Source of the DNA: Amoebophrya sp. A120
Lineage: Eukaryota; Protista; Dinoflagellata
Direction of reading: 5' to 3'
Assembly (NCBI GenBank): GCA_905178155.1
Contig: CAJINV010000009.1
Span: 3,554,275 to 3,618,274, forward strand
DNA: 64,000 nucleotides
Shown: piece after piece, positions 1,636-63,954 of the stretch
Position numbering within the stretch: the first letter of the stretch is position 1
How the letters are laid out: each line of letters starts with the position of its first letter
The notes under the pieces: generated by a model
The model's input: only the letters and a program-made list of their open reading frames with translations
What the model was told of the DNA's origin: nothing
The model's database searches: none
Program-made: the position numbers and the translations under genes

Positions 1636-4600
1636 ATGACAACCTCGAGGAACTACAGTGACAAGTACAAGAGCCCCCGAAAAAGGGCCCGCCTACGCAG
1701 ACCTGGCCGCTCTTCAGTGAAAAACAACTTGCTCACAAAGCTGCTTGAAGCCGTGAAAGGACGCATCCAGGACCTACAGAGAAGAGTACTAGATCCCTTT
1801 TTCCAAGAATCACGACGTAATGCTAAAGGTGATAGGGACCGTCAAGAACGCAGCTGGTTTGCTTTTCCAGTTTCGGGAGTAGGACCGGCCACTTCGACGT
1901 CCCCGGGCAGGAAAATGCGAAAAAACATCGATGCATGCAGCTCCTGTAAGGCGAGAGCGAGACGGACCGCCACGCATGGGCATCAGCGAGGACGGCGAGA
2001 AACGTCTGATCACATGAGCGGGAGGACTGTGAGCACAAGAACTAGCGATAACTCATCGTGTATTTCTCCCCGATCATTGCAAAATGCCGTAGGCTACAGC
2101 TGCGGTTGCCGAACAAGGTGGAGAAGGAGAACGGCACAGAGAAACGGAGTTGCAGCTGGTGCTACAAGCGGTGCTGCGACAAGGGCAACGACCGGAATAA
2201 TAAATGGGGCACCTGAAGATGTAGGAGCGCGGCGTAGTTGCAAAACGATCTCTTCGACTAGAGTCAGAGACAAGAACCTACCAAGCCCCAGCACCAGCCT
2301 CCACTGCAAGAACCTGATAAACCCCTTTCACCCGAAAGAGCAGTTCCCAATATTCCTATCCCTGTTCCTCTACCTCCAAACCTTCCTCAACTTTACCTTC
2401 GCCGCCTACTTCCACGTCCCGCCAGTCGACTCCACCTGGGTCCGCCCACTCATCCTGCCCTGGGAGCCGGTACGAGGGACGAAGGACGCGATTCTAGTCA
2501 CTTGGACCACCGGCTGGAACCCCAACGCCGCAGTTCTACGCTCGGTGTTGCAACGACGCTACCCCGTCGCGATCGGGTCCATGAACATCGATCTGCGGAA
2601 CAGGAACCAGGAATCCGCTACTTGGTACAACTCCACCGAACAATTCCCAGGATTTTCGCCCTGGGAAACGGTGTACGAGGGTCCGGGAAAGCAGTTCGAG
2701 AACACAAACCTACTCCCCGGCCATCCCTACGAGTTCCGGGTAAAGACGATCGGGCGGAACATTTTGAAATCAGTCCACCTCGGCGAGAACCCAGACACGG
2801 AGTCCGAGTGGTCGGTCCCGCAGATGGCCCACACGAACTACGACCCGATCCGGGAGCGGTTTCCGATCTTACTCCAGGGGATGTCGGCGCACAACCCGGA
2901 CTACGCCATAATCGAAATCGACCGGATCCAGGTTTACAGAAGAAGGGACGAGAAGGGCTTGGTTTTGGCGGTTTTCAGTAGGTGGAACATGCAGCTGATC
3001 TGGTATAAGAATTTTTTTTTTGCTAATTATCCATTGTACTGCGCGGGTGCATGACAGCTGTTGCCTTGCATCGGCGTTACGCGTGACAAATTATCATATT
3101 TTATCAGGTTGAAAACGTACAACACCTTCAACTATCCGGGGGATTCGAACGCGATGGCAAAGGACATTCGAAGATTATGGATTGCAAATATGTCTGGGTC
3201 TGAAAGATTCTAAACTTGTAATGCTGTCTCTGGATTCTACAAGAATTTGTATTGCATGACCAGCAAGAGGACTCCGGTTTGTGCTACGCGGAGAGGGCAT
3301 TTGTCATCCGGTACAGGCATCACAAAGTCCTCTAAAAATATGTGATGCTTGGGCATGCATCACAAACATCATGGGTCATTCAAAATATTATATGCATGAC
3401 AAACTTGGCAATCTTCCAGACCCAGACACTTTTGCAGTTGATAAAGATTAGATCAGTCCCATTTCATCGCGGTTGTCTCCACCGACGCGTGGGAGTGGAA
3501 CGTGACGCCGAGCCTGATAAAAGCCATGGAATTCTGCGGGGCCTTCCACTTCGCCACCTGGAGCCGGAATTACGGCGGGAGCCACATCAAGATGCCCACG
3601 CAGACAGGGTAGAAGAGGATAGGTTTTTTGATTATCTTCTCGATCTCCGAGAAGACTAACTTAGTCTTCTAACTAAACCTTAGTAAGGTTTCTACGCATC
3701 ACAACTGCTGTGTCTGTAGCAGCATCATGCTGCGTGCCAAACTCGCAGCTGGGAAAATGTTTCTGACTTCTTGTGAAAATCAAATATGTAAATCAGTTTT
3801 GACGTCGACCAAACCTCGAGCCAAAAGGGTTTCGGCAACCCCTACGCCTTCTGGGGCATTCCTGGTTCCGGAACCGGGATGGGGTTCGAATCCGTCGCGT
3901 GGCCAACCTCCGCTTACCTGATGCAGAAGCTGGCGCCAAACGCGATCGTGCGGCTGATTCTGTACATGGACTACGTGGTTCGCCACTACTTTGTTTCCCT
4001 CCCGTCGGTCCAAACGGTGTCTACGTCGTTTCACACGAAGGCTTTACCACCGACTCATGAGTCGTTGCACAACCCCTACACGTATGCACAGCGGCAGCTG
4101 GTGTGCGAAGGGCCGAACTGCAACGAGTACCAAGTCGGGGTAAAATCCTACATCCAGGAAGACGACTTTTACAAGGTCTACAACGGGGAACTCCGGGTCC
4201 ACATGGACAGGTTACTAGAAGCGAACCGCACCGTCGACCCGCATTACTACCACTTTTTCCTTTTCACCAACTCTTCCATCTACAAATTCGACCCCAGACC
4301 CGCGGAAACGAGAGTAACGGAACTAGAGCGGGTGTGGGGCGGGCCGTCGGAACGGTTTCACTTCAACGTGTCGGCGCAGGCGTATCAGCTGTCCGTGTTC
4401 CAAGAAGCCTTGCCGAGCTGGTTTCCGGAGAGAACGGGGATCCCTATGCTGTGCAAAAGTATCGTACTCGTAGCAATTGCGTTGATGCATGACAAATCTC
4501 TTTCTCAAGGTAAATCAGCATTACAAATTCGATTCGATTCGTAATGCTGCGCCAATTTGTAATGCAATTTATACTAGTACGATACTTGGTTTTGCAATGC

Positions 4601-5014
4601 ATAATTCCGTATAGGAAGCGATACTGCCCGGACCTGTTCCGGTCGGATCGGTTTGACATCAACCCGATAACATGCAGAAACACCTCCCGCAGGCCGACGA
4701 ATGAATCGACTCTCTCCCCAGACAACTCCTGTTGCGACTACTTGGACTGGAACGTGGGTGGGGACCCGAGCAGGGATTATTTCCTCGGGTTGAGGTGCGG
4801 GGTCGGGGTGGTACCGACGCTGTGTAACGAAACATTGACGAGTTTCTTACCCTCCATCTCGCACAAACCACCCTTCAACCACACGATGGGGCTGGGAACG
4901 CCATTGCCGCCGGTGTTTTCGAAACTTCCCCCCACGCAGTCGGTGATGGCCGCCATGCTGGGCTTCCAAAACCCGTTTCCGAACGGGCATTTTCACCACT
5001 TGGCAACGGTGTGA
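1636..5014 (+). CDS. Fibronectin type III + ILEI/GG-type-like domain protein (spliced; start uncertain)
   Basis: FN3-like segment WETVYEGPGKQFENTNLLPGHPYEFRVKT..SEWS. Spliced continuation GLVLAVFSRWNMQLIWLKTYNTF..AMAKDIRRLDQSHFIAVVSTDAWE..PYAFWGIPG resembles ILEI. GT-AG introns 3003-3107 and 3609-3796; introners 3176-3443 and 4445-4603. Confidence 0.65.
3176..3443. mobile_element. Introner family A (TIR ~TATCAAATGCAAAAATGTCTGGGTCTGGAAG)
   Basis: TSD AAGAT/AAGAT, TA termini; join RRLDQ. Confidence 0.9.
4445..4603. mobile_element. Introner family B (TIR ~TATnnnTGCAAAAGTATCGTACTCGTA)
   Basis: TSD ATCCC/ATTCC; join TGIPYRK. Confidence 0.85.
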
Positions 5015-5044
5015 TGAGGTGGTGGTGAATCGGGAATAAGCAGC

Positions 5045-7160
5045 AGAGGAATTATCGTCACATGGGATTTTTCCCGGAGGTACATTATTGCGCAGCAACT
5101 TGTCGTAGACTAGAGCTGACGCTAGCATGCTCCTGAGATCAATGAGATCATAGAGATAGGCTAGCAGTATGCCGATAGGTAGACGAAGATCTCGACACAT
5201 TGAGGGGCCGCACTAGTAGGATCAGACATCAGTGGATCACTAGGGTGACTAGGATCACATGCACTACACCACCAGGATGGTGAGCACAACACCATGACCA
5301 TGGTAACAATGTAAATGAATACAGTGCCAGAATGGCTTCTGGTCTCCGGGCCAGTAGCTTGACGAAACAAATTGCCCTGAACTCCGTAGCACCTTAGTTA
5401 GGTGCCTAGATAGTAACTCTGTTCTCTATCTCAGGACAGCATGCTAGTGCGCATGCCGGTCCTCGGTGGTTGACAGCACCTCGACAGAGTTATGAGCCCA
5501 AAGAGTTCCCCTATTGGGAGCGGGTAAGTACTACTAGCCACCCCGACCTATCCCTGCATAAGAGTAGGGAATGAGCTCCCCAGCTCGTGGCCGTAGTCGC
5601 CTCCTTGTGTGGCTAGTCCGCACATGGAGAGCCAGCTAAGCGCAAGGCGCTAGAAAGGGCAAGACCCCCCTCGCCACATATCTGTCGATGGCAGTTCTTG
5701 TTGCGAGCGTGGGGCACGTAAGTAAAAGTAAGTAGCAACACAAACATGGTGGCGCAGCAGCGACCTCCAGGGTGTTGCAGTAGAAGGAGAGGAATTATCG
5801 TCACATGGGATTTTTCCCGGAGGTACATCTACAGAAAGGTTTTGGCGGGAAGGTTTTGGCGGGAAGGGCAGTCAACGCACGAAAAAAACTTGGTTTCCCT
5901 GCCAAGCAGCAAAAGGCAAAGCAGAAAAATGAGCAAAGTTTTTCAGGTTCCCGATGCCCGCAAAACAAGCACGAACAAAACCAAAAGGCAAAGAGAAAAA
6001 AAATCCAAAGAAAACTGGCAGGCGCAAACCGCCAGCAGCAGCCCAAAACCTAGAACGCCTGGCCCGGCCGGCGCCTGTCGTGCCAGAACGAGAAGCAGGG
6101 CCCAGCAATCCAGGCAGAAAATGAGCGCGCGCCCTTCAGGTTGTTCTCGTTACATTCTGCCGCGTTAGACGCGCCCCCTAGCCTACCGGCTGGCACCAGA
6201 AATCCGCAGCAGGCGTAGCCACCCTCTCTGTTTTCATTGCAGTCACCCCAGTGTAACTAGGGCAAGGGTGCCGCTGTCGCTCCTCGGGGTGCATGTGTTT
6301 CGGCTAGCTGTAGCTGCGATTTGTGGAGTTAGGGGTCGCCGGTCCCGGTGATCGCTCGGCACATACAAAAAGAAGCAGACACAGCTGCAATCCCGTGAAC
6401 CGCTGCGCACCTCCTGTTGGCGCTAATTGTAAAGCGCGCGGGCGCGCCGCTCCAGTAGCAGAGCTTCGCCACAGCTCTTGCTTCCCAGTAGCAGGCACCC
6501 CTGCAGCAGCGCAATTATTTGGTCCAAGTCCTTTACCTTTTTTTACTGTATGCGAAGCTGATGAATATGAAAGTAGGCGGCCGCCCGACCTGCCTTGCTT
6601 CCCCGCCTGAACGCGACAGGTATTCCGGTGGTTGTCTCTGTGCCCCTCCCAGCCCGCGCGCGGTTGGTCGCTTTTGCGCTTCCGTTTTCGAGACGGTAGC
6701 TAGGCCGGTCGCGCGTGGAAGAACAACTACAAAGACCTGCTTGCAAAGCAGACAAGCCACGTAGTGTTCTTGTTTGAGTAGAAAAAGGCGACTTTTGGGC
6801 TCGAAGCTGTAGACAGTTTTGGGCCAAGACCTGTAGAGGTCGACCTCTAGAGGTTGACCTCTAGAGCTCACCCCTACAGGTTTTGCACCTCTAGAGGTCG
6901 CGGCCCTCCTCGAGCTCCAGGTTTTTCCACAGTAGTATGCGGATTCGAAATAGAAAAGTAGTCAAAAAAAAGGCTACCTCTAGAGCTTTGGCCCTCTTTT
7001 GGCCCAGGTTTGAGCCAGGTCCGCTTCACAGTAGCGTCGTCATTCGAAAAAAACCGGCAATGGCCGTCGTTTGAGCCTTCTTGGTCCCAGGTTTTAGACT
7101 ATTTGCTGCGAGTACTATAGTTCTTTTGGCTATCGTCACATGGGATTTTTCCCGGAGGTA
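5045..7160 (+). repeat. Three direct copies of TATCGTCACATGGGATTTTTCCCGGAGGTA
   Basis: 41-bp identical copies 5045-5085 and 5788-5828; 30-bp core at 7131-7160. Confidence 0.9.
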
Positions 7161-7809: not shown

Positions 7810-10800
7810 ATGGGTCAACTTCTCAGTTGTTGCCCGCGCCGTGGCGCGACTGAGGCTTCCGCGAAGGTCACTCCTGCCAAACCCGGAGTTCTAGACCGGT
7901 CTGATGACCTCTCGAATATTGCGGTCGCCGGACCACCCATAACGGCCACGGCGGTTCTCTCCGAGGTCCCCTCCGATGTGGACAAACAGAAGGACTTGGA
8001 GAGAATTCAGCTCACCACCGCGTCTACGACCGTTTCTGATGTAGAGCTGCCGGACGTCCTATCCAGGAAAAAACACCCAGTTCCATCCAATTTGTTATGC
8101 AGAACATGCATAAGCTTAAGCTGCAGTGTTTGTCATGCAAAAAATGGATGGGTATGGGTGTTTTTTCCTGGATACGTCCCTGTCGAGAAGCAATTCATTC
8201 CGCCCCCAGCCACTTTCCTCGACCTCCCGCCGGAACTCCTCATGACGATCTCCGAGTTCATTTCGAAGAACAAACGATCGCTCTGTGTGATTTCAAAGTC
8301 GTTTTTCAAGAACGCGAATTTCACCGCCTTTCCGAGGAACGAACTGATTTTGGAAGCGTGTCGCCGGGGATACGCGGCGTGGCTAAATTTGGTTCTGGTG
8401 GACGAGGAGAATGTTGCAACAATTGTGGATGAAAACGATAAAACGGCTACATTCCTTCCAGTCATCCCTGAACAACTGTTAGAAAAACTTTCCTCCATCT
8501 ACGACCGCTGTAAGATGACGATTTTTCACCACTCCGTTGAGTCCGGAAACGCGGAGACGGTGAAATTCTGGATCGATTTGTTTTCCAAAACAGCGAACCC
8601 AAATCTGGAATTGTTGGAAAAATTGCTAAACTCCCAAGACGTGTGGAAGTGCGTTCCGATGCACCGGTGCCGAACCGCGGAGATCGCGACATTGCTAACC
8701 ACGGTGAAAGCAACAGATCCACAGAACAAAAGCAAGGAAATCAAGATCAAACCCAAGCTGAACCTCGTGACCCGGGCGGATGTGAAGGACACGCTCATTC
8801 AAGCGGGGGATTCCGTGGGTCATGTTGCAGTCCGGTATGATAAACCAGAAATGCTCCAGGCATTAATCGACCAGATGAAGCAGACCGGCTTGGATTTGAA
8901 CATCAGCAATCGAAACGGGGACTCTCCTTTGGACATCGCGGTCGATCTGAAAATGCCGGCTTGTATCCTGTGCAAAAGTATCGTACTCGTATTGCAGTCA
9001 TGCATTTACAAATCTTTTTCTCAGCGTAAATCTGCATTACAAATTTTATTTCGCATGCTGAGGAAATTTGTCATGCATTTATACGAGTGCGATACTTTTG
9101 CAATGCATAGCTTGCGGATCCTTACTAGTGAAAGCAAACGCAAGCCGTGCGCAATGGTCCGCGCGGAAAATGACCTGGTACCAGGTATGGCCTGCTCAAA
9201 CGTTACAATCTCAAACGTTACAATAGAATCTGAGATTTGTCTTGCATGATGGACATGACAGACTCGCAGACCATTCCACTTTCTGCAATACAAATTTCGC
9301 CAGATTGTAGTGCGCATTGGGACTCCAGAACTTGTCATGCGCAATCCTATGAGAGTTGGCTAGATCATGCACTCTTGCATCACAGATTTCAATATTCTAT
9401 TGTAACGCTTGAGATTGTAACACCTGAGCGGGTTATACCAGGCAGTAGAGACGAAAATGGTGTTTGTAGTGGAGTTATCAAACGTAAAAATGTCTGGGTC
9501 TGGAAGAATGGAACTTGTGCTGCTAAATCTGAATAATCCAAAAATCTGTGTTGCGTAAGTGCCAAAAGCTGTCCGCTTTTGACCAAGTTGGGAGGGAGTT
9601 TCTCGTGCAGGAAAGGCATGACAGAAACCTCAAAGAATCTGTCATGCTGGGTCTCGCATTGCAGACCTCATGGGTCATGGAAAACCTGCATCACAAATCT
9701 TGCATTCTTCCAGACCCAGACATTTTTGCATTTGATAGGAGTACATGAAAACGAAGGGTCTAGCAGCTCCCGGCGGGGTGAACTTCCAGCAAAACAACAG
9801 CACGGGGGCTCCTGGGGGGACGGGATTATCAGGACATCAGGGAACAAACAACAGCGAAACGGGGGAAGCGGCGCTGCATTTGGCGTGTAGCTCGTTTTCT
9901 AGTGAAGACGGTAGTCTCGTCGTCCCACTGGTCGCGGGAACTACAGGGGTGCAGCACACAGCTGTGCACCCGATAAAAGCAATAGACACCGGCGTCCTCG
10001 TCCTAGACCCCGAGATCTGCAAAATCCTGTTGGATTCCAAAGCGGACGCAACTTTACGCGATAAGTCCGGGCAAACGGCGCTGCACAAAGCGTGTGTCTC
10101 AATGCGGAACGTGTTGGGCTGCAAGGATGGTATTAAGCACTGCCACAAAGATCATTCGCAAGAGGCTGCAAATAAAATGCGCGACAACGAGAAGAAGGTC
10201 TTACAAACCTGTGATTTTTTGTTGAAAGCGAATCCGCGGACTGTGGCGTACCAGGACAATGAGAAGTGCTCCGCTTTGATGCTAGCAGCAGGCTCTGGCA
10301 GCTTGGAGCTCTTGAAGTTACTGATCAGCTACTGCAGTGCAACCAATCTAGAGAGGGAAAGTAGCGGTGTCGCGGGAGCAGGAGCAACATCAACATCTAC
10401 ATCATCCACTCCAACAGCGCATCAATCCGATTTATCGCCCTCGAAACTACCGCAAAACAGCAGGTCGCAAGACCCGGAGAAGTTGATTCTCGAGTCCCGG
10501 GACGTGCAGAAAAGGAATTTGCTCCACTACGCCTGCACGTTCGACAATGTGGAAGTGGTGAAATTTCTCATGGAAAACTACATTTTGAACGAAACAGAAC
10601 ATCCTCAAAACACGACGCCCACATCAAGTACAAATTCAATCAAAAACCGAAAATTACTGACCACCGCCGTGGACGAACGAGAGCGGATTCCCTTCATGAC
10701 GGCCATCGTCTCCCGGGCGAGAAATGTTTTACAGTATTTCCTCGAATTAGAAAAGCAGAGACCAACCACATCGCTCATCACAAAACAAGTGGATCAGCAG

Positions 10801-12624: not shown

Positions 12625-15600
12625 ATGATGGTGCCGTCGCTTCTCTTCGCCAGCTTGGGCGCAGTAGCGCCGTGGTTTTTCTTCTTCACAAATCTCGTGA
12701 TTATCGGAGTAGATGCTGTCACCGTACAACAGCAACGAGCTTCGGTTGCAGCGGGAACAGGTGCGGGCAGAAGTACGTCTGCAGCTCTGTTGGAGAAGCG
12801 CCGTCGTGGAGCTCGTAGGGGAACGAGTCGAACGACGAAGTTCTCTATGCGGGGAAAATACAATCGCAGAAAGACCACTAGAACGAACTTCATTTCCCAG
12901 AAGGAGGCCCTGCTGCAAGTCCCGCACCACCTGCGACAGGAATTTGCTTTACTGCAGGAACAAGACCAGCATAGCCATGCAGGGACCAACATCAAGACCT
13001 CCCACAAGAGTAGAAAAGCAGCCTCTACTTCTTCTGCTGCGACGGCAGAAATAAGAAACGCGAACAAAATTCTCGAACTGAATAAGCTTTACTCCAAGCA
13101 CTTCGCTCAGCTCGACGAAACCATTCTTTCCTGCAACGAGAAAAAGCTCAACCTCCAATCGAAGTTGAAGGAGGAGAGTGAAAAATTGAAACAAAAACAG
13201 CAGCAATCAACCCAGCAATTGAGAAACAAAGACCTCCTCTACAAGACCGTCCAAGAGTTACAAGATAATATGCGGATTTCCGTGAACGAGATCGAGAAGC
13301 AAAAGCAGCTGTGTGAGAAGCAAGCGAGTAGCAGAAATGGAGAAATATTGGCTTTATCCCAGGACGAGCAGTTGGTCGGGAAGTTTCAACCTGACTACAG
13401 TACTTGCGACAAAACAGTCTCTTCACCGCCGAAACTTTTGGAGTGCACGTTACCCGACGGGTCACTGTTCTTCACTTTCGCGAATGGGACGCTGCATAAT
13501 AGCATGCATTGCAAATATGTCTGGGTCTGGAAGGATGTAACTTGTGATGCTGCATTTGCATGCTACAAAAATCTGTGTTGCATGAATAGCAAAAGAGGTC
13601 CAGTTTTTGCCATGGCGAGAGGGCATTTCTCATGCGGTATAGGCATCAGGAAGCCCTCGCAAAACTAGTGATGCTAGGTCATGCATCACAGACGTCAGGA
13701 ATCATGCAAAATGTGCATGACAAACCTTGCAGCCTTCCAGAGTCAGACATTTTTGCATTTGATAAATAATTTTGTCAGGAAATTCGCATCTAAAACCAGC
13801 AAAGAGCTGCTCTCCTTGAACTTGATGCGGATTCTGTACAGCAGCGAGGGGGCGATGCCGGGGGACTCGGCGCTGTTGCAGATTTCAACATCTGGGCAAA
13901 ATGGAAAGAACTTGATGTTCACGACAAGAGGTGGTCACGATCAACAACATTCTAGTAAGAAGATAAAACCGCACTTCCTCCTCCAAAACACGACGAATTA
14001 CAACGTGTCGGAGATTTTAACAGCAGAGGAGATCAACGACGGCGTGAAGTGTGCGAAGCATGCGAAACAGTTGAAAGGTCAAGACTGCGGGTTATACCAG
14101 GATTTGATCGCCACTTTCGAAGATTCCGTCCGCGACAGTAAGATCACTGCGAAGCAAGAATTGGTGAAAGAAACCGAGAAATATCCACGAAAAAACACCC
14201 ATCCCCATCCAATTTGTTATGCAAAACAAGCATAATTATGATTTGCAGTGTTTCTCATGCAAAAAATGGATGGGGATGGGTTCTTTTCCTGGATAAGAAA
14301 TGCGACAAAGCCACCAAGGATTTCGAAGTTTTGTCCTCTGGAAACAAGGCGAAATTACTGCAGCTGCAAGCGGAATTGCAGGAATCCGTACAGTATTTGC
14401 AGCAGTACGTCTTCGAGGCGGGGAAGCAGAAAACCACGTTTGAGGCAGTGTCAAAAGACATTGCGGCGGAGGTTTTGAGCTGCGAAAATTCCATCAACGC
14501 GGAAAAACAGTCGCTGGAGGGGCTGAAGATGTTGTACAAAACAGCTACCAACTCTGCCGGTGGTGCTGGGTCTTCTAGTACGACCTCAACATCAGGGTCA
14601 ACCTCAACAGCAGCCGCAAACAACAGCACTCCTGTGCAGTTCATGGGAAACTGCGAAGTTTCTCCGTTCGTCGCGGACACCCCCTGCGTTTGCACCGTCG
14701 GGAAGGACGGGGTGGTGAAGGGAAAGCAGACGCTTAGTCGCGAAATTGTGAACGTGGATTTTTCTGTGGCGGGTAACAAGAATTTCAACAAGGCCAGTTC
14801 CTGTCCGCCGCTGAAGTTAGTCGACCGGAGTTGCGATTGCAGCAGCGGGAGTTCAAGTTCTTCAGCAGGACAAGCACCGTCCTCCTCATCTTCCTGCCGC
14901 CCCTCCAAGTGGTCGGAATGGTCAGAGTGCACGCAGCAGTGCGGCACAGGCTTGCAATCGCGAACCCGGACGTTGCCGACAGGTTCGTCCTGTACTAGCG
15001 GTGGATCCGCTTTCCTACAGGACCTGAACACGGTGGAGGAGCAGGAGTGCAACACCCATCCGTGCGACTTGAACTGCGAATTGAGCGAGTGGACCGCCTG
15101 GTCCGGATGCACCAAGCAGTGTCGCACCGGGCACCAAGTGCGCAGACGGGAACACGTTTTGCAGCAGGCCCTCGGTGACAACGGGAAGTGCTGGAAGAAA
15201 AACTCGAAACAACGGCTGGAACTGCAGGTCTGCAACACCAACGCAGATTGCGTTGGCGCTTCTGGGGTGAAGCAGGCCGTGCCGAGTTGTAGTGAAAACA
15301 AACTTTCTGCGTCGAATTTGCTGTTTTTGGTCGACGGATCCGGGTCAATGCAAGTGCAGCAGAAGTCCACTGGTGGTGGATCAGCAGGAGCTACAACATC
15401 CCAAACGACCATCCTTCAAGACGTGCAAACGTTTCTTCTCTCCTTCGCGAAACGCATGAACTTTTTTCCGACCAGTGGTGTCACGAAGAACAAAATCGGG
15501 CTGATCACCTTCGCGGACAGAGCAGAGAAGATCAGCTTGGCGCAGGTAAATGAGCAGCAGGTAGTGCAGGAAGCGGATTTGAAGAGCGCAATCGTGGAGA

Positions 15601-16019
15601 AATTGCCGAAAAGTTTACTGAACGCCGGACACAGCACCAATTTAGCCGCGGCATTGTCTCTGGCGACGAATGAGCTAAGCTGTGGTGCCAGTACAACTTC
15701 TTCGTCATCCTCCTCTGTCGGTGAGTTTTGCCAAAACCGAGAATCGTCAACCTCCACCACTGCTATTCCGACGGTGTTTATCATCACAGACGGTATGCCG
15801 AGGTCCAAGTACTTAGCGACCATGGAGATGCAGAAGCTGGGGAAAATCGCGCGGGTGTTTTTTCTCACGATTGGGAATTCGCTGAATAAAAAGGTTCTGA
15901 AGAATTTTGCGACCTTTCCAAGTTCGGAAAATTTCTACCACGTATTGGAGAGCGCGAAATTGAAAGAGGTGGAAACCGTCACGGATATCATGGCGAATTT
16001 CTGTACGAAGTTTGCATAA
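12625..16019 (+). CDS. Secreted coiled-coil / thrombospondin type-1 repeats / C-terminal von Willebrand A domain protein
   Basis: Hydrophobic N-terminus; TSP1 motifs WSEWSECTQQCGTG..RTR and WTAWSGCTKQC; vWA MIDAS LFLVDGSGSM..TNLAAAL..IITDG. Introners 13503-13764 and 14182-14295. Confidence 0.85.
13503..13764. mobile_element. Introner family A
   Basis: TSD AATAG/AATAA; left terminus CA instead of TA. Confidence 0.85.
14182..14295. mobile_element. Introner family G
   Basis: TSD AGAAA; join TEKCDK. Confidence 0.9.
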
Positions 16020-24554: not shown

Positions 24555-24772
24555 AAAGAAAAACGGGGAGGATTAGGATACTAGGAAGGTGGGCGCGGAG
24601 GTCGCACTTGGTCCTCGGCGTAGAGGGTGGAACATTTGGTGTCATGTTCAACCAATTATACTTTTTTTCAACACGTTCACGTTTACAAATACAAACACAA
24701 AGCTTAGGCTTGCAATGCAGGCTGACGCAGCCGAACGAGCGGACGCTCCCCGGCAACCTGCTGGCTACAGCT

Positions 24773-24974
24773 TATCAAAGAAAAAAAGTTCGTCACGATC
24801 ACTCATGCGCATTTTTGCAATACAAAATTGTTTGCCATGCGTGAAAATGCATCACAAACTTCATAAGGGATTTCCCTAGTGTTTCTGCAATACAAGGAAA
24901 GTTTGTGGCGCTGGGAAAATTTGTAATGCAAAGCCTGCAAGTTAGTGACTGTGACAAACTTTTTTCTCTCCATG
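24773..24974. mobile_element. Introner family E copy outside coding sequence
   Basis: TSD CAGCT; right terminus TG; sister copy at 44688. Confidence 0.85.
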
Positions 24975-53312: not shown

Positions 53313-56300
53313 ATGTTGGCAGCGCAGGTGGCAGCGGCCGGTGGGGTCGCAGCCCAGCAGCGCATGAGCGGCTCGATGGGGGCACCCCCGCAGATGCCCC
53401 AGCAAGCCCACCCGGGTAGCAAGATGATGCACGACCAAGCGAGCTACGGGTATCCTAAGCAAAAACGTCCCCACGACCCCATAGTCAAGCTGGTAAATCT
53501 GCAAGACAATTCTCCACGCTTTGGGAGGTGTGCATGACAAGTTCCCATCTGCAGTGTAGTGCTGGTCAGCAAGGGCAGACGCATGAGAAAGCCAGTTTAT
53601 CATCGTGTTTACAGCATTCTTGCAAATTCCTAAACACAATTGGAAATGCCTCTCATCATTATGGAGATGCGCATTACAAATGTTCCTGTCATTGCGCAGT
53701 TGCATGACAGCTATGGAGTAGGGACGTTTTTACATAGGATAACAGGGCACCCACCTCCCTCATTCCGCAGACACGGTTCCGGGGCAGGAGGGGCGCTACG
53801 TTCTACGAGTTATCAAATGCAAATATGTCATCTGGGTCTGGAAGATTGCGAGATTTGTCATGCTAGTCTGGCATGACTCTGCACTGCACTCTGTATTGTG
53901 TGCTGGCCACCAAGAGGCTCTCTTGCCTGTCATGCAAAAGCGCACTTTCTCGTGCGAAATACGCATCACACAAGCACGAAAAAACTTGTCATGCTTGGCG
54001 GCGCATGATTACAGAGCACTTATTGGTCACGGACTTGCATCACAAGTTTCCAGACCCAGATGACATTTTTGCATTTGATACGAGTTGAGAAAAGACAACT
54101 GCTTCACGGACATCGCCATGGCGTCCTGGTTATGCATTGCAAAAGTATCGTACTCGTAGTAATCCCATTCATGCATTACAAATTTCTTTCTCAAGTTAAA
54201 TCCGCATTACAAATTTGATTTCTCATGCTGAGGAAATTTGTATTCGCAATTCATACTAGTACGGTACTTTTGCAGTGCATACTGGTTCGAGAATTTCGCG
54301 CTCCTCGTTATCGTCCTGAACGCACTGTGGATCGGGGTGGAGGTTGACATAAACGACGGCACCAAAGACGCACCGCCAGAGGAGCTTTTTGTCGTGGTGG
54401 AAAACGTGTTTTGCGTTCTGTTCACGGCCGAAATCTTCGTCCGCCTCATGAGTTACAAGAAGGCGCTTTTCTTCTGCACCGACAAGGAGCTGCGATTTTG
54501 GAACATCTTCGACTTGCTTTTGGTACCACGCTAGTACAACGTAGTTTGGAGGTTGTCACGCAAATTTCCTGTATGTAGAAATTGTGAAGTTCTTGTAATA
54601 ATCCACCTCATGATCCTGGTGCTCTATCGCGCACAGTATAATAATTGCTATTCAAAGGGACTACTTCTACTACACACCGCGTTGAATTGATTCTTGTAGC
54701 TCGAAGTGCTGTTGAAGACACCCATCATGAAAAACCTACCTCAGGTGCTGTTGATGGTAATAGAAAACTGGATTCTCTCCTGGGCAATGGGCGACTATGG
54801 ATTGCAAAAATGTCTGGGTCTGGAAGATTGCCGTGTTTGTCATGCATATTTGGTATGGCCAAGGATGTCTGTAATGCATGACCTAGCATCACAGATTTTT
54901 ACAAGGCTTCCTGATGCCTATTCCGCATGACAAATTCCGTCCCCGCGTAGCACAAACTGGACTCCTCTTGCTGGTCATGCAATACAAATTTTTTTCGACT
55001 CCCAAGCTAGCATCACAAGTCCCAACTTTCCAGACCCAGACATATTTGCAATGCATAGCGACGAGGAAGGTGCCATGAGCTCGCTGTCCGCGTTGCGTCT
55101 GCTCTATGAATCTGTCAGGATTGAAATCGTCAAAGTTGAAATGGTTTGTCATGCATAAAATGCAAGGCATGAAGTGCCTGTCTTGCCGGGGTGGCAAGTG
55201 AGGCAGATTGTGGGCCTATTTAGGGTTTGGGATAGAACTGCTAAAGGAGCATGACAAAAGCACTGCTCTGTGCCCAAACAGCATGACAAATTGGATTTCG
55301 GTGCTCCGGAAATTTGTCATGCGCCGCTTGAAAATTGGTCTCCCAAGTGGTATCCATTCATGACACATTATTTCAACTTTGTCGATTTCAAACCTGACGC
55401 GTCCATATGCTCAGGTTGCTGCGTATCTCCCGAATCTTTCGAATGGTCCCCGAGCTCGGAATGATGGTCAAATCGATGGCGGCGGCTGCAAGGTACATCG
55501 GCTCATTGTTGAATCAGCTCCTCACATACTTTGGACAAAAACAATGTCAAGAACCAGTGGATGAACTCGAATTTGTTGTGCTGAAGATGCAGAATGTTGT
55601 GACGTGAAGATGTGATAACCCACCTTTGTCATATACGATGTCATCTTCATTCATTTTTGTAAATTTAGCATGACAATAAAAAGAAAAACTACCACCTCTC
55701 CTAGGTCCGTGTCTTCAACGATGGTGCTGGCAGTCGGGCTCATGTACGTCTTCGCCGTTTTATTCACGCAGTGGGGCTATGCATCGCAAATATGTTCTTC
55801 GGGTTTGGAAGATTTGTCATGCGAAACGACTTCGTATTTGAATTTCTTCTACTTTCACGAAAAGAAGTCACATGATCTGGGCTTCTATGTTTGTGATGCG
55901 TCGAGAGTGCGGTTTCTCCCCAGCTTTTTTTGTTTTTTGAAGTGCTGAATGAATAATCTTCATCCTCACAATGCAGCTTGTAAAAATCTAGAGCAGCCCG
56001 AGGACAACATGTTTGCAATGAATATCGGCAAAGAAAAGGAAGACTTCAATGGAAAATGCCGAGACTTGCCAACGCCGTGCGAAGACGATACAAACTACTT
56101 TGGCTCCCTCGGCTGGAGCTTTATGAGCTTGATGCAGATATTGGTACCATCTTGATTTTTTACGATCTCTTGATGCTTCATCGTTTTGGGCAGATGAAGT
56201 AGCGTAGAAATAACTGGAGCTCTGTCATGTGAAAGGAAATTCGTGCCTTTTATTCTTCCCAAGAAATCCGTCCCTGCTTCTTGACACGCGACGAGTATGT

Positions 56301-59300
56301 TTACGTATACATGAAAAAAGTAAAAGTACAGATTATACACGGAACGAAAGCGATGATGAAGCCATCCAAAATAAAGTTGCAACTGATCTTTTCCCCCAAA
56401 TAAGGTATACGACGACACTTTCGCGCTTATCCGCAAGACTTTCCTGGCCAACGCACTCATGGGTCTGCTGCTGATCATCTTCATCCTCGTTGGTGCCTTC
56501 ACGGTGCTCAACATGCTAATTGGTGTCTATGGCGTTCTCGAACGTTACATTCTGAGCTGTTACATGAATTTGTGATGCAAGAACCGCAACAGTGAACGGG
56601 GCAAGCTTGCAGCTTTCGCATCACAAATCCGGCACAGATTTAGGCGCTGTTTAGCCCTTCGGGGATTTGTCATGCGAAGTGGCTTGATTGTCTGGTGGTT
56701 CATGATGTTTTTCGCGGTTCTGACCCTAGATCTCCTGCGTCCGAAGCTGCTTGCGGCGACGGTGCAAAGGTTTTTGAAGTGGCGCAGTCGGGTATGCATG
56801 ACAAATCATGTGACATCAGTTGAGAATGTAACGTTTGAGAATCCCATAGTGTCATCTGCGAGATTGTGTCGACCACAAAAAAGGAAGATATGAACACGAA
56901 GCTTTTCACCTCCGCACAACAAGAATCGGAACTACTACACGTGCCAATCTTGCATGAGAAGTACAACTAGCAGCCTGTCAAGTGTTGTAAGTACCTTTTG
57001 CTTTTTCAGCAACAGAAATAACCTTCGTCTCGGTTTTAGCAAGAACTTGCTGTTTTTTATCCAGGTCCACCTCCACCCGAAATTTGTGATGCGCGATGTG
57101 CTTTGGTGAAACAGGTTTGTGTTGCATAGGAGAGGAAGAGAAGCTACTCATGAACAAGGTCGAGGATCTTTTCGCGCAAATGGACGCCGACGAATCTGGC
57201 ACCATCTCCCGGGAAGAATTCGAAGCCAAGACCGCACTCCTAGAGAAGCTGGGCCTGGACCAGTCCACAATAAGACTAGCCTTCGAACTCATTGATGACG
57301 ACCGCAGTGGAAGCTTGGAAATGCAGGAATTCATACACATGGTATGAAATTTCATGCGATTGTTGTAGTTGTTGCAATACAAATATTAATTAGCATCTTC
57401 CACCGGCGCAGGCATGATGTTATTTTTGATTGTAGCGTTGTTGTGAGATCACTGTACGAACAAATATGACACGTGAGCATGATCACAACCACAAGAAGCC
57501 TCAGAAGCCTCGTTCGCTTGATGTTGATGAAGTGCGGGTAAATAAAAATATGGTTTTGCGGATCATCATGATAGAACCCGAACAGCAAAAGCGGAGCAAC
57601 ACGAAAATCTACACGTGAACTTCTAGCAATATGAAAACGAAAACGCATTCACAAAAACTACACTTAGGTTTTCCGGCTGTTGCACCCCCCGACGTCACAG
57701 GACCTTTTGGTGATAAAACGAAATTTAGCGAAGCTGTGCGACTCCCTCGGTTGCGACGTGTTCGATGCGCCCCCACCCATGAAGGCCAGCAAGAAGAGCG
57801 GACGCGCGACCTCGGGCGGCGGAGGCAATGGCCCCTCGGACGGGGGCTCCGGAAAGGGGGAGGGGGAGAAGGAAGAGAAGGTGGCGAGCGGGTTTGTCAA
57901 GAAGTCAAAGACTATGGCGTTCTCAACTGTTACATCTTCAACTGTTACATGGATTTGTGATGCAAGAATGAAAAAAGAGCAAGGAGGAAGATTGCGCCTT
58001 TTGCATTACAAGTTTGGTGCAGATTATAATGCTATCTAGTGCGTCAAGAACTTGTCATGCGAAGCAGCTTGATCCTGTAGATGTGTATTGTAGTTTTGCA
58101 TTACAAATCCATGTAACAGTTGAGAATGTAACATTTGAGAACGCCATAAAGACCTTCTCGGGGATGGAAACCAGTGTGGCGCAATACAGCATCGATATGC
58201 ATTGCAAAAGTATCGTACTCGTACTAATTGCAACTTCTACGCATGACAAATCTCGTCCTTAAGGTAAAACAGCATGACAAAAAAATCCAGTTCTCATGCT
58301 GGGAAAATTTGTAATGCATTTTTTATACGAGTGCGATACTGTTGCTGTGCATAATCGAGCATGTGGAGCAACAAATCAAAAACGCAGTGGCCCTGGCGGT
58401 CAAGCAGGAGGTGGTGTTATGGAACAAAAGCCTCCAAAGTGTGTCACTGTCGTGTCTGAAAAAATTATTCTTTTTCTTTCTCAGTGTCACCCCGGACGAC
58501 TACACCGGATGTTGACACTACGACAACCTCTACTGCTAGTAGCCGCGCAACAGAAACATAGAAAGTGGTCGAATTATATTCAATGTTTCAGATTGCTACA
58601 CAAGCACACTTTTTTTTGTTCTTGCATAAGCGCCGAGACTAGGGGCAGGAGGAGGAGCGGGCGGCTACGGTGGCTACGATGCCGGCGCGGTATTTTTTTA
58701 CTATGTGGACATGGGATCTACATCTCGATCTAGGTGTGCATGACAGAATTTTTTACAAACGAAAATCGCCTCCGTGTCCGTGTGACTTGTCAACGTGTGT
58801 GAATTGACGAGATAAGTAAACAAAAGTGATTTGCCATGCACAAATGTGAAACAAACACAGATGTCAAACTACGGTGGTGGGGCTTCGAACGAAAATTTGG
58901 AGAGCATCAAGCGCGAAGTCCGGGGCTTGCAGGATTCCGTCCAGCGGGTGGATATGAATTGCAAGAGCATCGTGCTAGTAGTACTTAATCGCATTACAAA
59001 CTTGCTCAGCATGACAAATGGAATTTGTGATGCTGTTTTACCTTAGTAAGGAGACGAGACTCGAATAGCTTCGCCCGCTCGGTGTGACATCGCAAACTTG
59101 CGCTAGAAGGAGCATTTTTCACAAAGTTCACCTCCCGCCGCGGGACGCGCACGCTTTGCGTATCACCTGGGAACAACGTTGCTGCGTCTCGCGCTGCATC
59201 CCCCCGCGGCCTAGTGGATGCGTTTTCAAAGCATGTCGAGCCGGAAACGCGGCTAGAGACGCCTTCGCAGTGCGTTTCTGGTTGGAAATCTAGCAAGCGA

Positions 59301-61837
59301 CGCCGTCGCAGTGCATTTCTAGCTGGAAACCCACCTAGCGACGCCGTCTCAGGGCGTTTCTAGCTAGAAAGCCAGCTAGCGACGCCGCCCCGGTGTGTGT
59401 CCAGCAGGGAATCCAGCTAGCAATGCCGTCCCAGCGCCTTTCTAGCTGAAAGGAAATACGGCCGGAAAGGCAGCGGCAGCGTGTTTCCGGCTAGAGATCC
59501 AGGCGGAAAGGCATCGCCAGCGCGTTCCCAGAACGAAATCCAGCGGGAGAGGCATCGCCAAAGCGCCCCCGGCTGGAAGAAATTCAGCCGGCCGCGTCTT
59601 TGCAGAGTATTGCTAGCGTGAAATGGAGCCGGGGGCGCCTTTTCTTTCAGAGCATTCCTAGCGGGAAACCCAGACGGAGGCGCGTTTTTTTCTAGCCGGG
59701 AGGAAATCCAGCAGGGAGGCAGTGCATTACTTAAAGAGGCATCCGCAAGCAACGCGCCTCCAGCTGGAAATCCATCGAGGGCGCCTCTTCGATGAGTATC
59801 CAGCTGGAGACGCCGTGGCAATGGAAATCCAGCTTGCTGGAAACGCCTTTTCGAGGGAAATCCAGATGGAAACGCATCGAGAAGGCTTTTCCAGCGCTTT
59901 CCCGCCCGACCTTTTCAAAGTGTTGGAAGCTGGATTTCTAGTAGAAGACGGCTTTCGATTTCTAGCTTGGAATCCAGGCGCGGGGAACAGTTTGAAAAGG
60001 CATCCGCGGCGCATTGTTAGCTGGGATTCCAGGTCAAGGCGCCTCAAGGTGTTGCCAGGTGGATAGATTTGCGGGCGGAGATGCCTCGGGGCATTTCCAG
60101 CTGTCAAGAATCGCAAGGCAGCTGATTTCTCTTCGGTTTCCCGGGGTTTCTTCCCGCGTTAGCAAAACTCTTCTGGCTACCCGGGGAAAGGCTTGCCTAG
60201 AAGGATATTGGGTAGGTAATGGGAAGCTATCGGGAAGGGGTGGCAGAGCTGGAGCTCTTCTCGGGTTGTTGTGCTTAGCGCGGCTCTTCAGGCTACCCGG
60301 GGCAAGGATCTTCTAGTAGGGTAGCGGGAGGGTGTTCATTGGGATAGTGGAAATGTGTTGGGAATTTGTTTTTTTTTTCCCGAGTTGCTGCGTTTAGCAC
60401 AGTTATTCTGGCTACCCGGGGCATGGGTTTTCTAGTAGAATGCCTGGAAGGTATTGATGGAGGCATCCATCTGCGCCATCGTTGCACGCCTTCCAGGTGC
60501 AGCGTCCGTGGCTGCGGTTGCCGCCTTCCGTCTCCGTCGGCTGCTCGCGATGTCTCCGTGCCCGCGATCAGCTGAAGCTTTTTTTCCTTAGGGATTTCAT
60601 TAAGAAAGTGACACGCGAGCGCGCGGATCCGATTGACCCCCTACGTCACTCCCCCCCGCCCCTTCGAGATGATGACACTGGGCCCCAATCTGTATGAGTA
60701 GTTTTTATTTTTGGGATGAAGACTTACATGCGGGGGGCCCTCGCCCCCCCCCGCGCCCCCCCCCGCCCTTTCGATATGATGACACTGCGCCCCAATCCGT
60801 ATGAATAGTTTTTATTTTTGGGATGAAGACTTACATGCGGGGGGCCCCCGCCCCCCCCCGCGCCCCCCCCGCCCTTTCGATATGATGATATTGCGCCCCA
60901 ATCTGTATGAAAAGTTTTAGATCTAAGATTATAGCTTTAAGATCTAAGATCATGACTTTTGACATTGCGCCCCGATCTGTAGGGATGCTTTTAAGATCTA
61001 AGACGATAAGAGCCAAGATTATGGCTTTTGAGATGAAGACTCACATGCGGGGGGCCCTCGCCCCCCCCCGCGCCCCCCCCCGCCCCTTCGACGTGATGTT
61101 ATTGGGCCCCAATCTGTATGAGTAGTTTTTATTTTTGAGATGAAGAACTACATGCGGGGGGCCCTCGCCCCCCCCCGCGCCCCCCCCGCCCTTTCGAGAT
61201 GATGACACTGCGCCCCAATCTGTATGAAAAGTCTTTAGTTCTAAGATTATAACTTTAAGATCTAAGATCATGACTTTTGAGACGCTTGGTCATAGCTTTA
61301 AGATCTAAGATTCATTATGAGATGCTTTAAGATTCAGATTAGATGACTTTGAGACGCTTTTTAGAATCTAAGATGATGACTTTTGAAATGAAGACTCCAG
61401 AATTCTGCGATAGGTTTAAGATTTCGTAAGATTTGAGATTGAGATAAGATTTGATAATAAGATTGGCGATTCGAATAAGATTTGAGACTGAGCTAAGATT
61501 TAAGATTCAGATTGAGACTGAGACTTGAGATTGAGACTTGGTGTGAAATTGAATTACTCAATTTGAATTATTCATGAAGTTGAATTATTCAATTTGAATT
61601 ATTCACGAAATTGAATTATTCAATTTGAATTATTCAGAAAATTGAATTATTCGTGAGTCTTGCGATGAAATTGTAGATATGACTATCAATTTGTCATGAT
61701 GCATAACAGCAATTGGTACGAGTGCGATACTCTTGCACTGCATAGTGGAAGTGGTGCTGCAAAATCTACGGGACAAACTGCAGGTTAAGCGACGGTCAAG
61801 CTCGCAGCAACAACAGGGAAACAACTCGTCACAGTAG
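53313..61837 (+). CDS. Second single-domain 6TM voltage-gated cation channel with two EF-hands; last exon lies beyond a 2.8-kb intron
   Basis: WFENFALLVIVLNALWIG; spliced S4 LSALRLLRLLRISRIFR; S6 TVLNMLIGVICEIV; EF-hands DADESGTISREEF and DDDRSGSLEMQEF; terminal join VQRV|EVVLQNLRDKL..stop at 61835-61837. Confidence 0.85.
53451..53741. mobile_element. Introner family K (TATCCT..G.AAAAACGTCCC)
   Basis: TSD ACGGG/ACAGG, which yields GT-AG ends. Confidence 0.87.
53811..54080. mobile_element. Introner family A
   Basis: TSD CGAGT; 3-nt insertion present in both TIR arms. Confidence 0.9.
54131..54281. mobile_element. Introner family B
   Basis: TSD CTGGT; join ASWFEN. Confidence 0.9.
54796..55057. 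mobile_element. Introner family A
   Basis: TSD GCGAC. Confidence 0.9.
55105..55407. mobile_element. Introner family F inside S4
   Basis: TSD TGCTC; join LRLLRLLR. Confidence 0.9.
55778..56024. mobile_element. Diverged A-like introner
   Basis: Flanks GGGGC/TCGGC; join TQWGKEK. Confidence 0.75.
56528..56848. mobile_element. Introner family C
   Basis: TSD GTGTC; join LIGVICE. Confidence 0.9.
56889..57128. mobile_element. Diverged introner (singleton)
   Basis: TSD GAAGA/GGAGA; imperfect TIR TATG(C)AACAC..TTTCACC. Confidence 0.75.
57913..58148. mobile_element. Introner family C
   Basis: TSD AAGAC. Confidence 0.9.
58196..58353. mobile_element. Introner family B
   Basis: TSD ATCGA. Confidence 0.9.
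58418..58628. mobile_element. Strongly decayed introner
   Basis: TATG..GAACAAAA termini; flanks diverged; removing element plus 5 nt restores frame. Confidence 0.55.
60645..61270. repeat. ~107-bp GC-run minisatellite with an AT-rich variant unit
   Basis: CATGCGGGGGGCCC..CCCCCCCGCGCCCCCCCC recurs at 60727, 60834, 61043, 61151. Confidence 0.9.
61545..61652. repeat. 31-bp tandem repeat built from the palindrome TTGAATTATTCAA
   Basis: About 3.5 units of GAAATTGAATTATTCAATTTGAATTATTCAC. Confidence 0.9.
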
Positions 61838-63321
61838 GGGGACGACGCGCGGATGATGTTCTTGGTGTCGTGATTTCGTCAAGTTTATTTCTCAGATGTT
61901 ACATACTCCTTGACAAGAACTACTCCCGGTGCTGTGAAAAAGTAAAAGACACGACATCGACAGTGATATATGGAAAAGCGAAAGAACTCGAAAATGCTAT
62001 GTACAAATGTCTATACCTACGATAGATTTGTTGTCCCTACAACTAAGGAGGTGGAGCGAGAAGATAGTTTTACCTCTGTGCATCAAGAAAGCAATACACT
62101 TCTGGGCTTCATCTTGAGGAGATCATTTTTTTACCCGACGAGGACAACTCCACCTAGTAGAAGATCAGCTTTTCTCCTTTTTCAGGCACAGCAGCATGAA
62201 AAGTGCTAGACCCCCAGCGAGATAGTGGTGTCCTAGTCTTCAAGGAGAACCAAAAATAGTAGTGCCGCAGTGGCTGTGGTGCTGCTTCTGCACAAAATGT
62301 TGACTCGGATAGCATCTATTTCGTCGGAGGTAGTTGTACCGTAGTACTACTAAGGTGTTATTGGTCATTTGATTTTCCACAACGAACAGAGCCGTATGAT
62401 CTAGACCCTGCTGTTGATTGGGTAGTTGCTTGTCGTCGTTCCACCCCCGGCGTCCCCGGCCACAAAAAAACACAGTACAGAGTTGTCGCAGTCATGCTTT
62501 TACTTCATTTCTACCTCCTTGCAGTACTATCCTAATATCTCCTCCTTAAATATAGTCTGTCAATGAAATATTGTGTTTAATTTATCATGAAAGTACGAAA
62601 ATGTATTGCAGCGAGCACGCGGCCGTCGCGTGCTTTGTTTATTATGTTTCCGAAATGAAATCACAATCACAAGCAGAAAGCACGAGCAGAACCTAACCTT
62701 TCGTAGGAGGGATTATATTCACGTAATAAAAAAAAATGCTCGCACAAAAAAATCATCCACTGTATAATTCTGTTGTGAATCTAGACCGCAGCCTGTAGTT
62801 GAAGCTTGTACATAAATTCGACTGAAGAGAACAACTTCTATAAGCGTGAGTATCAACTTGTTATGGTGCTGTACAGAGAAATAGAAGAAAAGCTTAAGCT
62901 AGTGCTTGACGAAGACGACGGAGCCGCCCAGGCGTCGTATCGGCTTGTAAGCACGCCGACGCCACGACGAAGCAGTGCTGGCTTTGTTGCGTTGGCCGTG
63001 TTCTGGAGGAGCAACCAGATGGAAAATCGTTGCAAGACCTACTTTCGGTTGCAGTGCCGCATCGGCATCCTCTCTGCGATGTCCTTGCAGAAGAAGTTAC
63101 TGCTTCATAAAAGGCGTATAATTTTTCATCGGTTTCGTCCTCACACCTTGGCTCCTCGTCCTCCTGCTGCTGTCATCAGGCGACAGGCGATTTTTACTCG
63201 TACACACAGCAGAGGTTCAGAAACTACTGCTAGTACCTCAATACCTCGGTTTTCGTCCTACTTCCCGTGCCCCAGAACAAAGACTCGTCGTACTCCCCTC
63301 GTCTCTGTGAACTTGTCGTTT

Positions 63322-63480
63322 TATGAGGCTCATGCTGTTTGTAATGACGGCTCATGGACAGAGTTTTCTCTGTCGTCGTCATGGACCCCAAAGCCTCTGT
63401 ATGAGGCTCATGCTGTTTATGCAAGACAAATTTCAGATTCTATTGTAACGTTTGGGATTGCAACATCTGAGCAAGCCATA
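63322..63480. mobile_element. Broken family-C introner (one TIR only) at the Top2 truncation
   Basis: 63420-63480 matches the reverse complement of the 9186 left end; internal duplication TATGAGGCTCATGCTGTTT at 63322 and 63400. Confidence 0.7.
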
Positions 63481-63954
63481 TCGTGCATTTGCACCGGGAC
63501 CCCGGACCCGTTATTCTCGACGGAGATTCTCCCGGTATTCGTGTCCATCTCAACTCTGATTTCGTCGCAGGTGCTGTCGCGCTGCATGTGGTCCGCGGCG
63601 TTTACCAGGATCTCGTCGAAGATTTTGTACAGGGCGGGACAGTACCTGATAGCAAAAGTATAGAGCTTCATCGTCTTCATGCATTACACGCCTTTGCCTC
63701 AGGCCGCGAGTTTTGCATCACAAATAATTGTTCTCGCCATGCAGTACAACAACTTCCTTATACCTGAGAACCCTCTCCTCAAATTTCTCCCCCGCTGCGT
63801 TCAGCACGAACATCTTCTCTTTCCTCTCCTGCCGGGTCCCCACGTACGTATCTGGCCGGGCTAGAATGTGCTCGTGGTGCGTCATTTTGGAATATTGCTG
63901 TTCCTCCTTATTTGATGCACCAGCACCACCGCTCTCTTTGGAGCTGCCGGTGGC
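63481..63954 (-). pseudogene. TOP2: Type IIA DNA topoisomerase (Top2) N-terminal fragment, apparently truncated at an introner
   Basis: Spliced QYSKMTHHEHILARPDTYVG..RVLRYCPALYKIFDEILVNAADH..ISVENNGSGVPVQMH; intron 63646-63763. No Top2-like continuation is visible downstream, and the 5' end lies outside the window. Confidence 0.7.

Follow-up and report, generated by a model that had tools for sequence, protein, structure and literature searches.

A single cut register fits introner removal in an Amoebophrya A120 locus, where a drive toward canonical intron ends is not measurable

Where is an intron cut when it ends in inverted repeats rather than in GT and AG, and do such introns become canonical with time? 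This question is raised by a 64,000-nt stretch of the Amoebophrya sp. A120 genome (contig CAJINV010000009.1, positions 3,554,275 to 3,618,274; hereafter the window), which has 49% GC and many genes. Roughly 60% of this parasite's introns lack GT-AG ends and are nevertheless removed, and their published borders were left undefined. A first-pass annotation of the window had proposed that introners (transposon-derived introns) are cut between bases 4 and 5 of their target-site duplication (TSD), that they acquire GT-AG ends there, and that their terminal inverted repeats (TIRs) subsequently decay.

An end-profile search identified 59 hairpin elements of 109-330 nt on the plus strand (span 3176-58353), with inverted ends TAT(C/G)..AAA. 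The 5-bp flanking repeat was perfect in 45, carried one mismatch in 10 (55/59 with at most one), and carried two or three in 4. In the end profile of 45 elements, the TIR consisted of TAT, about seven variable bases, and at least three A residues, which fits the description of A120 introners. Excising an element plus 5 nt restored long plus-strand open reading frames (ORFs; e.g. 1,048, 1,454, and 1,384 codons) encoding ankyrin, Kelch-RING, EXS, ion-channel, and TSP1-vWA proteins according to Pfam. The elements show the traits of MITEs (transposable elements of the miniature inverted-repeat type) or other non-autonomous DNA transposons, being short, bounded by TIRs and a TSD of constant length, and too short for a transposase. 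Among 239 elements from the window and a second assembly, 11 families had at least three copies. Judged by these features, the window elements are already known Amoebophrya A120-type introners.

We examined transcript evidence for positions 13300-33299 using two sets of contigs, X3 and X6, which represent different samples from a single study and whose RNA nature was guessed. Canonical GT-AG introns were also absent from these contigs, which indicates that they are spliced. Two raw-read runs (X9 and X10) gave only 15 and 4 aligned reads, all partial. Fifteen of 56 joints were examined, 12 at TIR elements, 2 at canonical introns, and 1 at a TIR-less non-canonical intron. At all 12 TIR joints, the element plus five bases was absent from the dominant contigs. 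The position of the cut was expressed as k, the number of TSD bases retained from the left copy, and was constrained at six junctions marked by TSD mismatches, all on the plus strand.

At two introns, base 5 was taken from the right copy, so that k could not exceed 4: 20363-20531 (element 20364-20527, TSD AAGAG/AAGAA, joint 20358>20528 in X3 and X6 with 4 slidable bases; k = 0-4) and 26637-26951 (element 26638-26947, TSD CCTCA/CCTCC, joint 26631>26947 in X3 only; k = -1 to 4). Intron 28789-28944 (element 28790-28940, TSD CGACG/CTACG, joint 28786>28943) kept base 2 of the left copy (k = 2-5). Intron 30642-30805 (element 30643-30801, TSD CGATT/CGACT, joint 30641>30806 in X3 and X6) kept base 4 of the left copy, leaving k = 4 or 5; this joint used a 1-nt match and skipped the 3-nt CGA match. 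The TSD of intron 21117-21307 (element 21118-21303, GGGTG/AACTG, joint 21115>21307) agrees at only 2 of 5 positions and allowed k = 3-5. The sixth junction, at a non-canonical intron with decayed TIRs (17492-17711, flanks GCATT/CCCGT, joint 17491>17712 in X3 and X6), allowed k = 4-6.

Only k = 4 was compatible with all six junctions, which excludes a fixed k of 0-3 or 5. Such agreement would have a probability of 0.026 for a k drawn uniformly at each intron. At k = 4 these introns end, in the order given, in GT-GA, AT-TC, GT-AC, TT-AC, GT-CT, and TT-CG, and GT-AG is impossible at each of the five marked joints that belong to TIR elements. The Kelch gene provided a length checksum. Between 20528 and 23663, 1,599 nt were removed in both X3 and X6, which equals the sum obtained with a 257-nt GT..GC intron at 22709-22965 (element 22710-22961, TSD GAGCG); for three canonical introns, the lengths entered into this total were inferred. 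The in-frame 254-nt GT..AG alternative (22709-22962) would give 1,596 nt, which indicates that it was not used. The cut predicted between TSD bases 4 and 5 was supported by the marked junctions, the evidence that the first-pass annotation had proposed to seek in cDNA. We hold with considerable confidence that the register is fixed at 4+1, with the cut after TSD base 4 whatever bases lie there.

To describe intron ends more broadly, one TIR pattern scan collected 128 loci (L001-L128) from another assembly, JACKZZ01, which is filed under metagenome contigs. This assembly carries the same introner families as the window; the 40 longest BLAST rows contained no match between a locus and the exons of the window. 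From 186 element calls we removed 6 with four or five TSD mismatches, and then 21 of the remaining 180 with a weak strand call. Strand was called by codon use, which was correct for 59/59 window elements when one gene was left out at a time. The 218 oriented elements from the window and this assembly together had AT (63), CT (61), GT (60), TT (33), and GC (1) donors at k = 4, and all 16 dinucleotides were represented among acceptors. After dropping one element with a short flank, the logo of 217 elements showed T at +2 (100%), A at +3 (100%), T at +4 (98%), A at -7 (99%), T at -6 (99%), and A at -5 (98%), the TA ends being partly built into the element caller. Positions +1 and -4 to -1 were flat. 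TSDs of the form GNNNG, which offer an in-frame GT..ATAG site, made up 17 of the 217. The GT/GC donor and AG acceptor typical of U2-type introns were rare, GT-AG occurring in 4/217 at k = 4. The two largest families lie either way round relative to the gene (62:73 and 14:15), and the end duplex had a median of -27.1 kcal/mol. No pairing rule between +1 and -1 was detected (p = 0.64).

Selection for NNAGG at insertion was considered separately and rejected. Perfect TSDs were flat, with AGG in 3 and its mirror CCT in 2 of 172, and AG at positions 3-4 occurred 16 times compared with 14, 18, and 12 elsewhere.

We propose that introners are removed at one register, likely by a spliceosome that reads the ends of the element rather than GT-AG, and place the probability of this reading slightly above even (roughly 0.55). 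The intron would have the form N-UAU(C/G)...(G/C)AUA-NNNN, with +1 and -4 to -1 being whatever the target site held. As these positions come from the target, any 5-bp site, in either orientation, would yield a clean mRNA. The donor would be read through +2 to +4 (UAU), which is common to canonical introns here (GUAU/GUAC). As the first-pass annotation noted for most such introns, all 17 TIR-less canonical introns located start with GTA (10 GTAT, 6 GTAC, and 1 GTAG), so that 16/17 donors are GTAY and share +2 to +4 with the TIR start. The acceptor would be set four bases beyond the terminal (G/C)AUA, from which the 3' cut is likely measured. Donors with U at +4 have been tied to loss of METTL16/SNRNP27K in the available portion of Parker et al. 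(2023, PMC10581693), and snRNP27 is among six proteins undetected in A25 and A120 in the accessible text of Farhat et al. (2021, PMC7789003). A donor read as UAU fits the +4U preference of species without SNRNP27K. The nine commonest non-canonical pairs of A120 all have NT donors (Farhat et al., Table S4, as accessible); these pairs were placed by an aligner and are not independent.

The second half of the question is whether introners turn canonical. The sites on which the first-pass annotation built this idea are present as it described them; those listed next all lie on the plus strand. Predicted introner introns end in GT..AG at k = 4 at 9185-9441 (element 9186-9437, TSD CCAGG/CCAGG, duplex -30.0 kcal/mol, hairpin intact), 42722-42894 (element 42723-42890, TSD GCAGG/GCAGG, duplex -17.3), and 53450-53745 (element 53451-53741, TSD ACGGG/ACAGG, duplex -25.9, hairpin intact). 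The GT..GA ends at 20364 are likewise as described, as are the predicted GC..TA ends at 13502-13768 (element start 13503, TSD AATAG/AATAA). Its two counter-examples, 26638 and the predicted TT..AC intron at 49718-49874 (element start 49719, TSD TCACT/TCACC), are present too. However, its example sites were a favourable subset of the 14 mismatched window elements.

Over the whole sample, no drive toward GT-AG was measurable. GT-AG ends at k = 4 occurred in 3/59 window elements, and the 4 among 217 oriented elements compare with an expectation of 5.0 if donors and acceptors combined at their individual frequencies. Pooled mismatches pointed toward GT-AG in 12/20 cases (p = 0.25). Position 5 had G on the left in 7 and on the right in 2 (p = 0.09), and position 3 had A on the right in 4 and on the left in 1, whereas position 4 had G on the right in 1 and on the left in 5, opposite to a drift toward GT-AG. 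AG acceptors were found in 2/46 elements with mismatched TSDs compared with 16/172 with perfect TSDs. Directed conversion to GT-AG is thus not supported. As a separate observation on position 4 (window and loci), the right base, which is intron position -1, was C in 8/11 mismatches (C right 8, left 2), with left G opposite right C four times; these numbers are small.

In the largest family, TIR scores were the same for GT-donor and non-GT-donor elements (23.5 vs 23.7, p = 0.66). The three GT-AG elements of the window scored 14.7 compared with 19.4 for the others (p = 0.09). A pooled test (p = 0.04) was set aside since the locus elements had been found through a consensus end. All three GT-AG window elements retain hairpins of -17 to -30 kcal/mol. 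Conversely, the TIR of intron 17492-17711 has decayed although its ends are not GT-AG, and this intron was removed as TT..CG; only TACGC/GCATA ends are left, with a TIR score of 0 and an end duplex of -8.3 kcal/mol against a null median of -8.4. Age was difficult to read from the elements. Terminal 8-mers are drawn from a small common set (TATCAAAT, TATGCATT, TATCCTGT, TATGAATT, and others) mixed across families, and the two ends are identical in only 10/59 elements, making TIR identity a poor clock. Rank within a family under its hidden Markov model (HMM) was no different for elements with mismatched and with perfect TSDs (p = 0.87) and is a poor age proxy for that reason.

Evidence for decay of some copies was more favourable. 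As the first-pass annotation anticipated, TIR loss and canonical ends go together, with GT-AG in 17/18 TIR-less introns and 3/61 TIR-bearing ones; the 17 TIR-less GT-AG introns were picked by eye, and 5 are RNA-supported. The same pattern would be expected if canonical introns were the ancestral type and non-canonical ones depended on their ends. An internal introner motif had 12 matches in 10/16 canonical introns (4.5/kb) against 0.44 expected from shuffles (p = 0.0005), compared with 0.18/kb in intergenic DNA and 12.6/kb in elements. A role of this motif, GCA(T)NACAA, as a branch point is disfavoured by its 6:6 orientation in canonical introns.

Two canonical introns stood out by their interiors. 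One, a predicted intron, lies on the minus strand at 63646-63763, has flanks TCAGG/TCAGG as claimed, and interrupts a gene with a HATPase_c domain (Pfam), which we take to be Top2-like. It has lost any TIR, and its interior scored 17.2 bits with the model of the ~155-nt family (nhmmer, E = 5.4e-6). The other, at 34260-34361 on the plus strand, scored more weakly (12.3 bits, E = 1.8e-4). Both exceeded all 510 shuffles (maximum 7.2 bits). As 22/210 elements of other families also reached at least 17.2 bits on the same HMM, which counts against a narrower reading, we describe these remnants as introner-like and do not assign them to a family. In sequence, some canonical introns, these two among them, resemble decayed introners. 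Inverted and direct repeats also occur in 15% of canonical A120 introns in the accessible text of Farhat et al. (PMC7789003). Chance alone would make about 2% of insertions GT-AG. The ends of these copies would then be dispensable, and decay has likely affected some of them. Decay of canonical-by-chance copies into ordinary-looking introns is plausible.

Other candidates were less telling. The 105-nt intron at 3003-3107 (plus strand), presented as a former introner, is indeed a predicted GT..AG intron with flanks TCTGG/TCAGG, and its removal gives an 894-codon ORF. It has no TIR (score -4.0, null mean -5.6) and matches no family (its highest score was 3.1 bits, against 2.7 and 5.4 at the 95th and 99th percentiles of shuffles), so that reading its flanks as a TSD is unsupported. 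A canonical GT..AG intron at 17181-17370 (plus strand, joint 17176>17367) has a perfect ACAGG repeat and a TATCA start without a TIR. Across the 17 canonical introns without a TIR, most of the repeat falls at positions 3, 4, and 5 (matching in 11, 14, and 14 of 17), which is the ordinary AG/G consensus; positions 1 and 2 matched in 8/17 and 4/17 (p = 0.06 and 0.71).

Several points weigh against the reading we prefer. Six junctions were informative, all from two samples of one study. The lower bound on k was set only by 30643 and 17493 and the upper bound only by 20364 and 26638, the element ends at 17493 were inferred from motifs, and the mismatched TSD bases were read from assembled sequence, at a similar rate in both assemblies (14/59 elements in the window, 32/159 in the second assembly). 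A cut that slides within the TSD or varies among introns, with six cases agreeing by chance, would exploit these limits, since each junction alone permits 2-6 registers and contigs drop minor forms; the legend of Fig. 3 in Farhat et al. (PMC7789003), as accessible, describes splice sites whose position varies with respect to the hairpin. Given the joint chance of 0.026 and the exclusion of a fixed k of 0-3 or 5, we regard such sliding as decidedly unlikely. A hairpin combined with a direct repeat is also a known substrate for the template-switch artefact of reverse transcriptase. The joints might be such switches, or DNA excisions, as the RNA nature of X3 and X6 was only guessed. This is highly improbable: GT-AG introns are missing from the same contigs, ORFs of 1,037-1,454 codons exist only once the elements are taken out, the 30643 joint bypasses its longer match, and 17492 and 21118 have repeats of 2 of 5 bases.

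The machinery itself can also be disputed. U1 was not found in A120 in the accessible text of Farhat et al. (PMC7789003), which speaks against splicing and for a non-spliceosomal nuclease-ligase reading paired ends (1-nt 5' and 4-nt 3' overhang) at the same register, as proposed for euglenid nonconventional introns. The lack of constraint at +1, -1, and -2, the stable end duplex, and the ignored GT..AG at 22710 would suit such an enzyme. However, the invariant U+2, A+3, and U+4 are those of canonical donors of the same genes, 83/89 spliceosomal proteins and U2, U4, U5, and U6 were found in A120 (same source), and intron 17492-17711 was removed without a hairpin above background. We consider the nuclease-ligase unlikely and spliceosomal removal likely. 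Equally unlikely is the full life cycle, in which selection converts TSD bases to GT-AG, TIRs then decay, and most canonical introns are old introners. Motif enrichment, the two HMM remnants, the TA at +2/+3 common to both intron types, the left-G excess at position 5, the TIR-less and TIR-bearing contrast, and the lower TIR score of GT-AG window elements favour it. Two further hints toward conversion count against our reading: within families, divergence is slightly higher for elements with a GT donor (rank 0.43 vs 0.53, p = 0.04, uncorrected, among some ten tests), and identity to the nearest copy is lower for the four GT-AG elements (median 77.5 vs 86.8). Opposed to these are the GT-AG count below expectation, the pooled and position-4 mismatches, the scarcity of AG among mismatched TSDs, equal TIR scores in the largest family, decay without GT-AG at 17492-17711, and hairpins kept by GT-AG elements. 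In addition, about 19% of A120 introns are canonical at positions shared with A25, more than half of the 35% that are canonical (Farhat et al. 2021, PMC7789003, as accessible). The life cycle as a whole is unproven. Returning to removal by element ends, we advance a fuller version only tentatively: a U1-less spliceosome would read an N/N-UAU donor and cut four bases past AUA, with the invariant A at -7 or that at -5 as a possible branch point. Every 5-bp insertion, whatever its orientation, would then make a perfect intron, and much of the present GT-AG intron complement of this genome would be the decayed chance-canonical subset.

Two further elements were recognised later. Element 56889-57128 is a predicted diverged introner (intron 56888-57132, plus strand, TSD GAAGA/GGAGA, AT..AG at k = 4) whose removal restores the frame. 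A long copy at 58953-61744 belongs to the ~155-nt family and has a perfect TSD, GTGGA; a 2.6-kb insert with degenerate and tandem repeats interrupts it. It has no ORF above 165 aa between stops in a scan of ORFs only, with no Pfam search of them. One end of a ~237-nt-family element (63403-63480) adjoins a Top2 exon, its opposite end not being found, and another element beginning at 63955 is cut off by the window end. None of the 59 elements lies in the approximately 12.6 kb of approximate intergenic DNA (window 1-59100; p ~1e-8 if uniform); all are in genes. Element 24773-24974 sits in a 3' untranslated region, and contig pieces stop at its TSD as if spliced. At 42890-42895, the acceptor at k = 4 is a tandem ATAG-CAG/G with an in-frame alternative three bases upstream. 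A candidate at 47301-47607 was rejected as coding sequence of the ion-channel gene. Other repeats include TCTAAAATCTCAAGAATAC units of a different type, which occur in both direct and inverted form at 710-1100, upstream of the first gene, and a ~30-nt motif (core TCACATGGGATTTTTCCCGGAGGTA) present three times in an intergenic stretch (5040-5085, 5790-5830, and 7130-7160).

A single register would replace tens of thousands of ambiguous junctions with a defined consensus, the N-UAU(C/G)...(G/C)AUA-NNNN form, as a rule usable by gene finders. It would pin where branch points and U6 pairing should be sought and account for sequence-free insertion sites. The life-cycle idea is weightier for intron origins and is here only hinted at.

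Among known systems, introners of Micromonas/Aureococcus and Polarella/Symbiodinium are also non-autonomous TIR elements with TSDs, from which splice sites are recruited, and conversion of GA to GC boundaries with age is reported for Symbiodinium (PMC11282704; bioRxiv 10.1101/2020.10.14.339549; PMC9860276, in the portions available). According to the same portions, either the element or the TSD must supply G(T/C/A) and AG in those introners, so that fewer sites are tolerated. In contrast, TSDs here are flat, and neither G at +1 nor AG is needed. Fungal introner-like elements are canonical from birth. They resemble the present case as repeated introns that degenerate until indistinguishable from regular introns (PMC3609843, PMC4457414, as accessible) and differ in being without TIR or TSD (PMC9860276, as accessible). 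MITE-derived introns of Fritillaria borealis, as summarised in the accessible part of PMC11282704, are TIR- and TSD-bearing non-GT-AG introns removed by a modified spliceosome; they prefer AG-AC/AG-AT ends and a TAC target, and no such preference is seen here.

Euglenid nonconventional and 'intermediate' introns likewise have slidable repeats and ends that pair at a constant distance from the cut; their borders were resolved with non-slidable introns, and possible conversion to the conventional type is discussed (PMC4770533; PMC12501133, as accessible). Their offset is +4 to +6/-8 to -6, with CAG/CTG and a purine rule, whereas it is +2/-5 with TAT/ATA here, in an unrelated lineage. Neither border resolution by non-slidable introns nor end conversion with age is new in kind. 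In the literature searched we found no statement of a fixed register; the figures of Farhat et al. (Fig. 3, S19-S23) and non-CC papers, outside that search, may show it, and their text on direct-repeat position and the Fig. S23 legend (inverted repeats 1-5 nt from splice sites) may anticipate it (PMC7789003, as accessible). The register is probably an unpublished detail of a known system. The A120 introners of that source match the present elements in inverted repeats starting with TAT, about seven variable bases and then As, in direct repeats of 3-5 nt (5 bp in the Fig. S19 legend), in a length of ~240 nt, in their many families, and in NT-NN splice pairs. Where its Fig. 3 legend gives the border as 'unknown' or 'variable', the marked junctions here fit one register.

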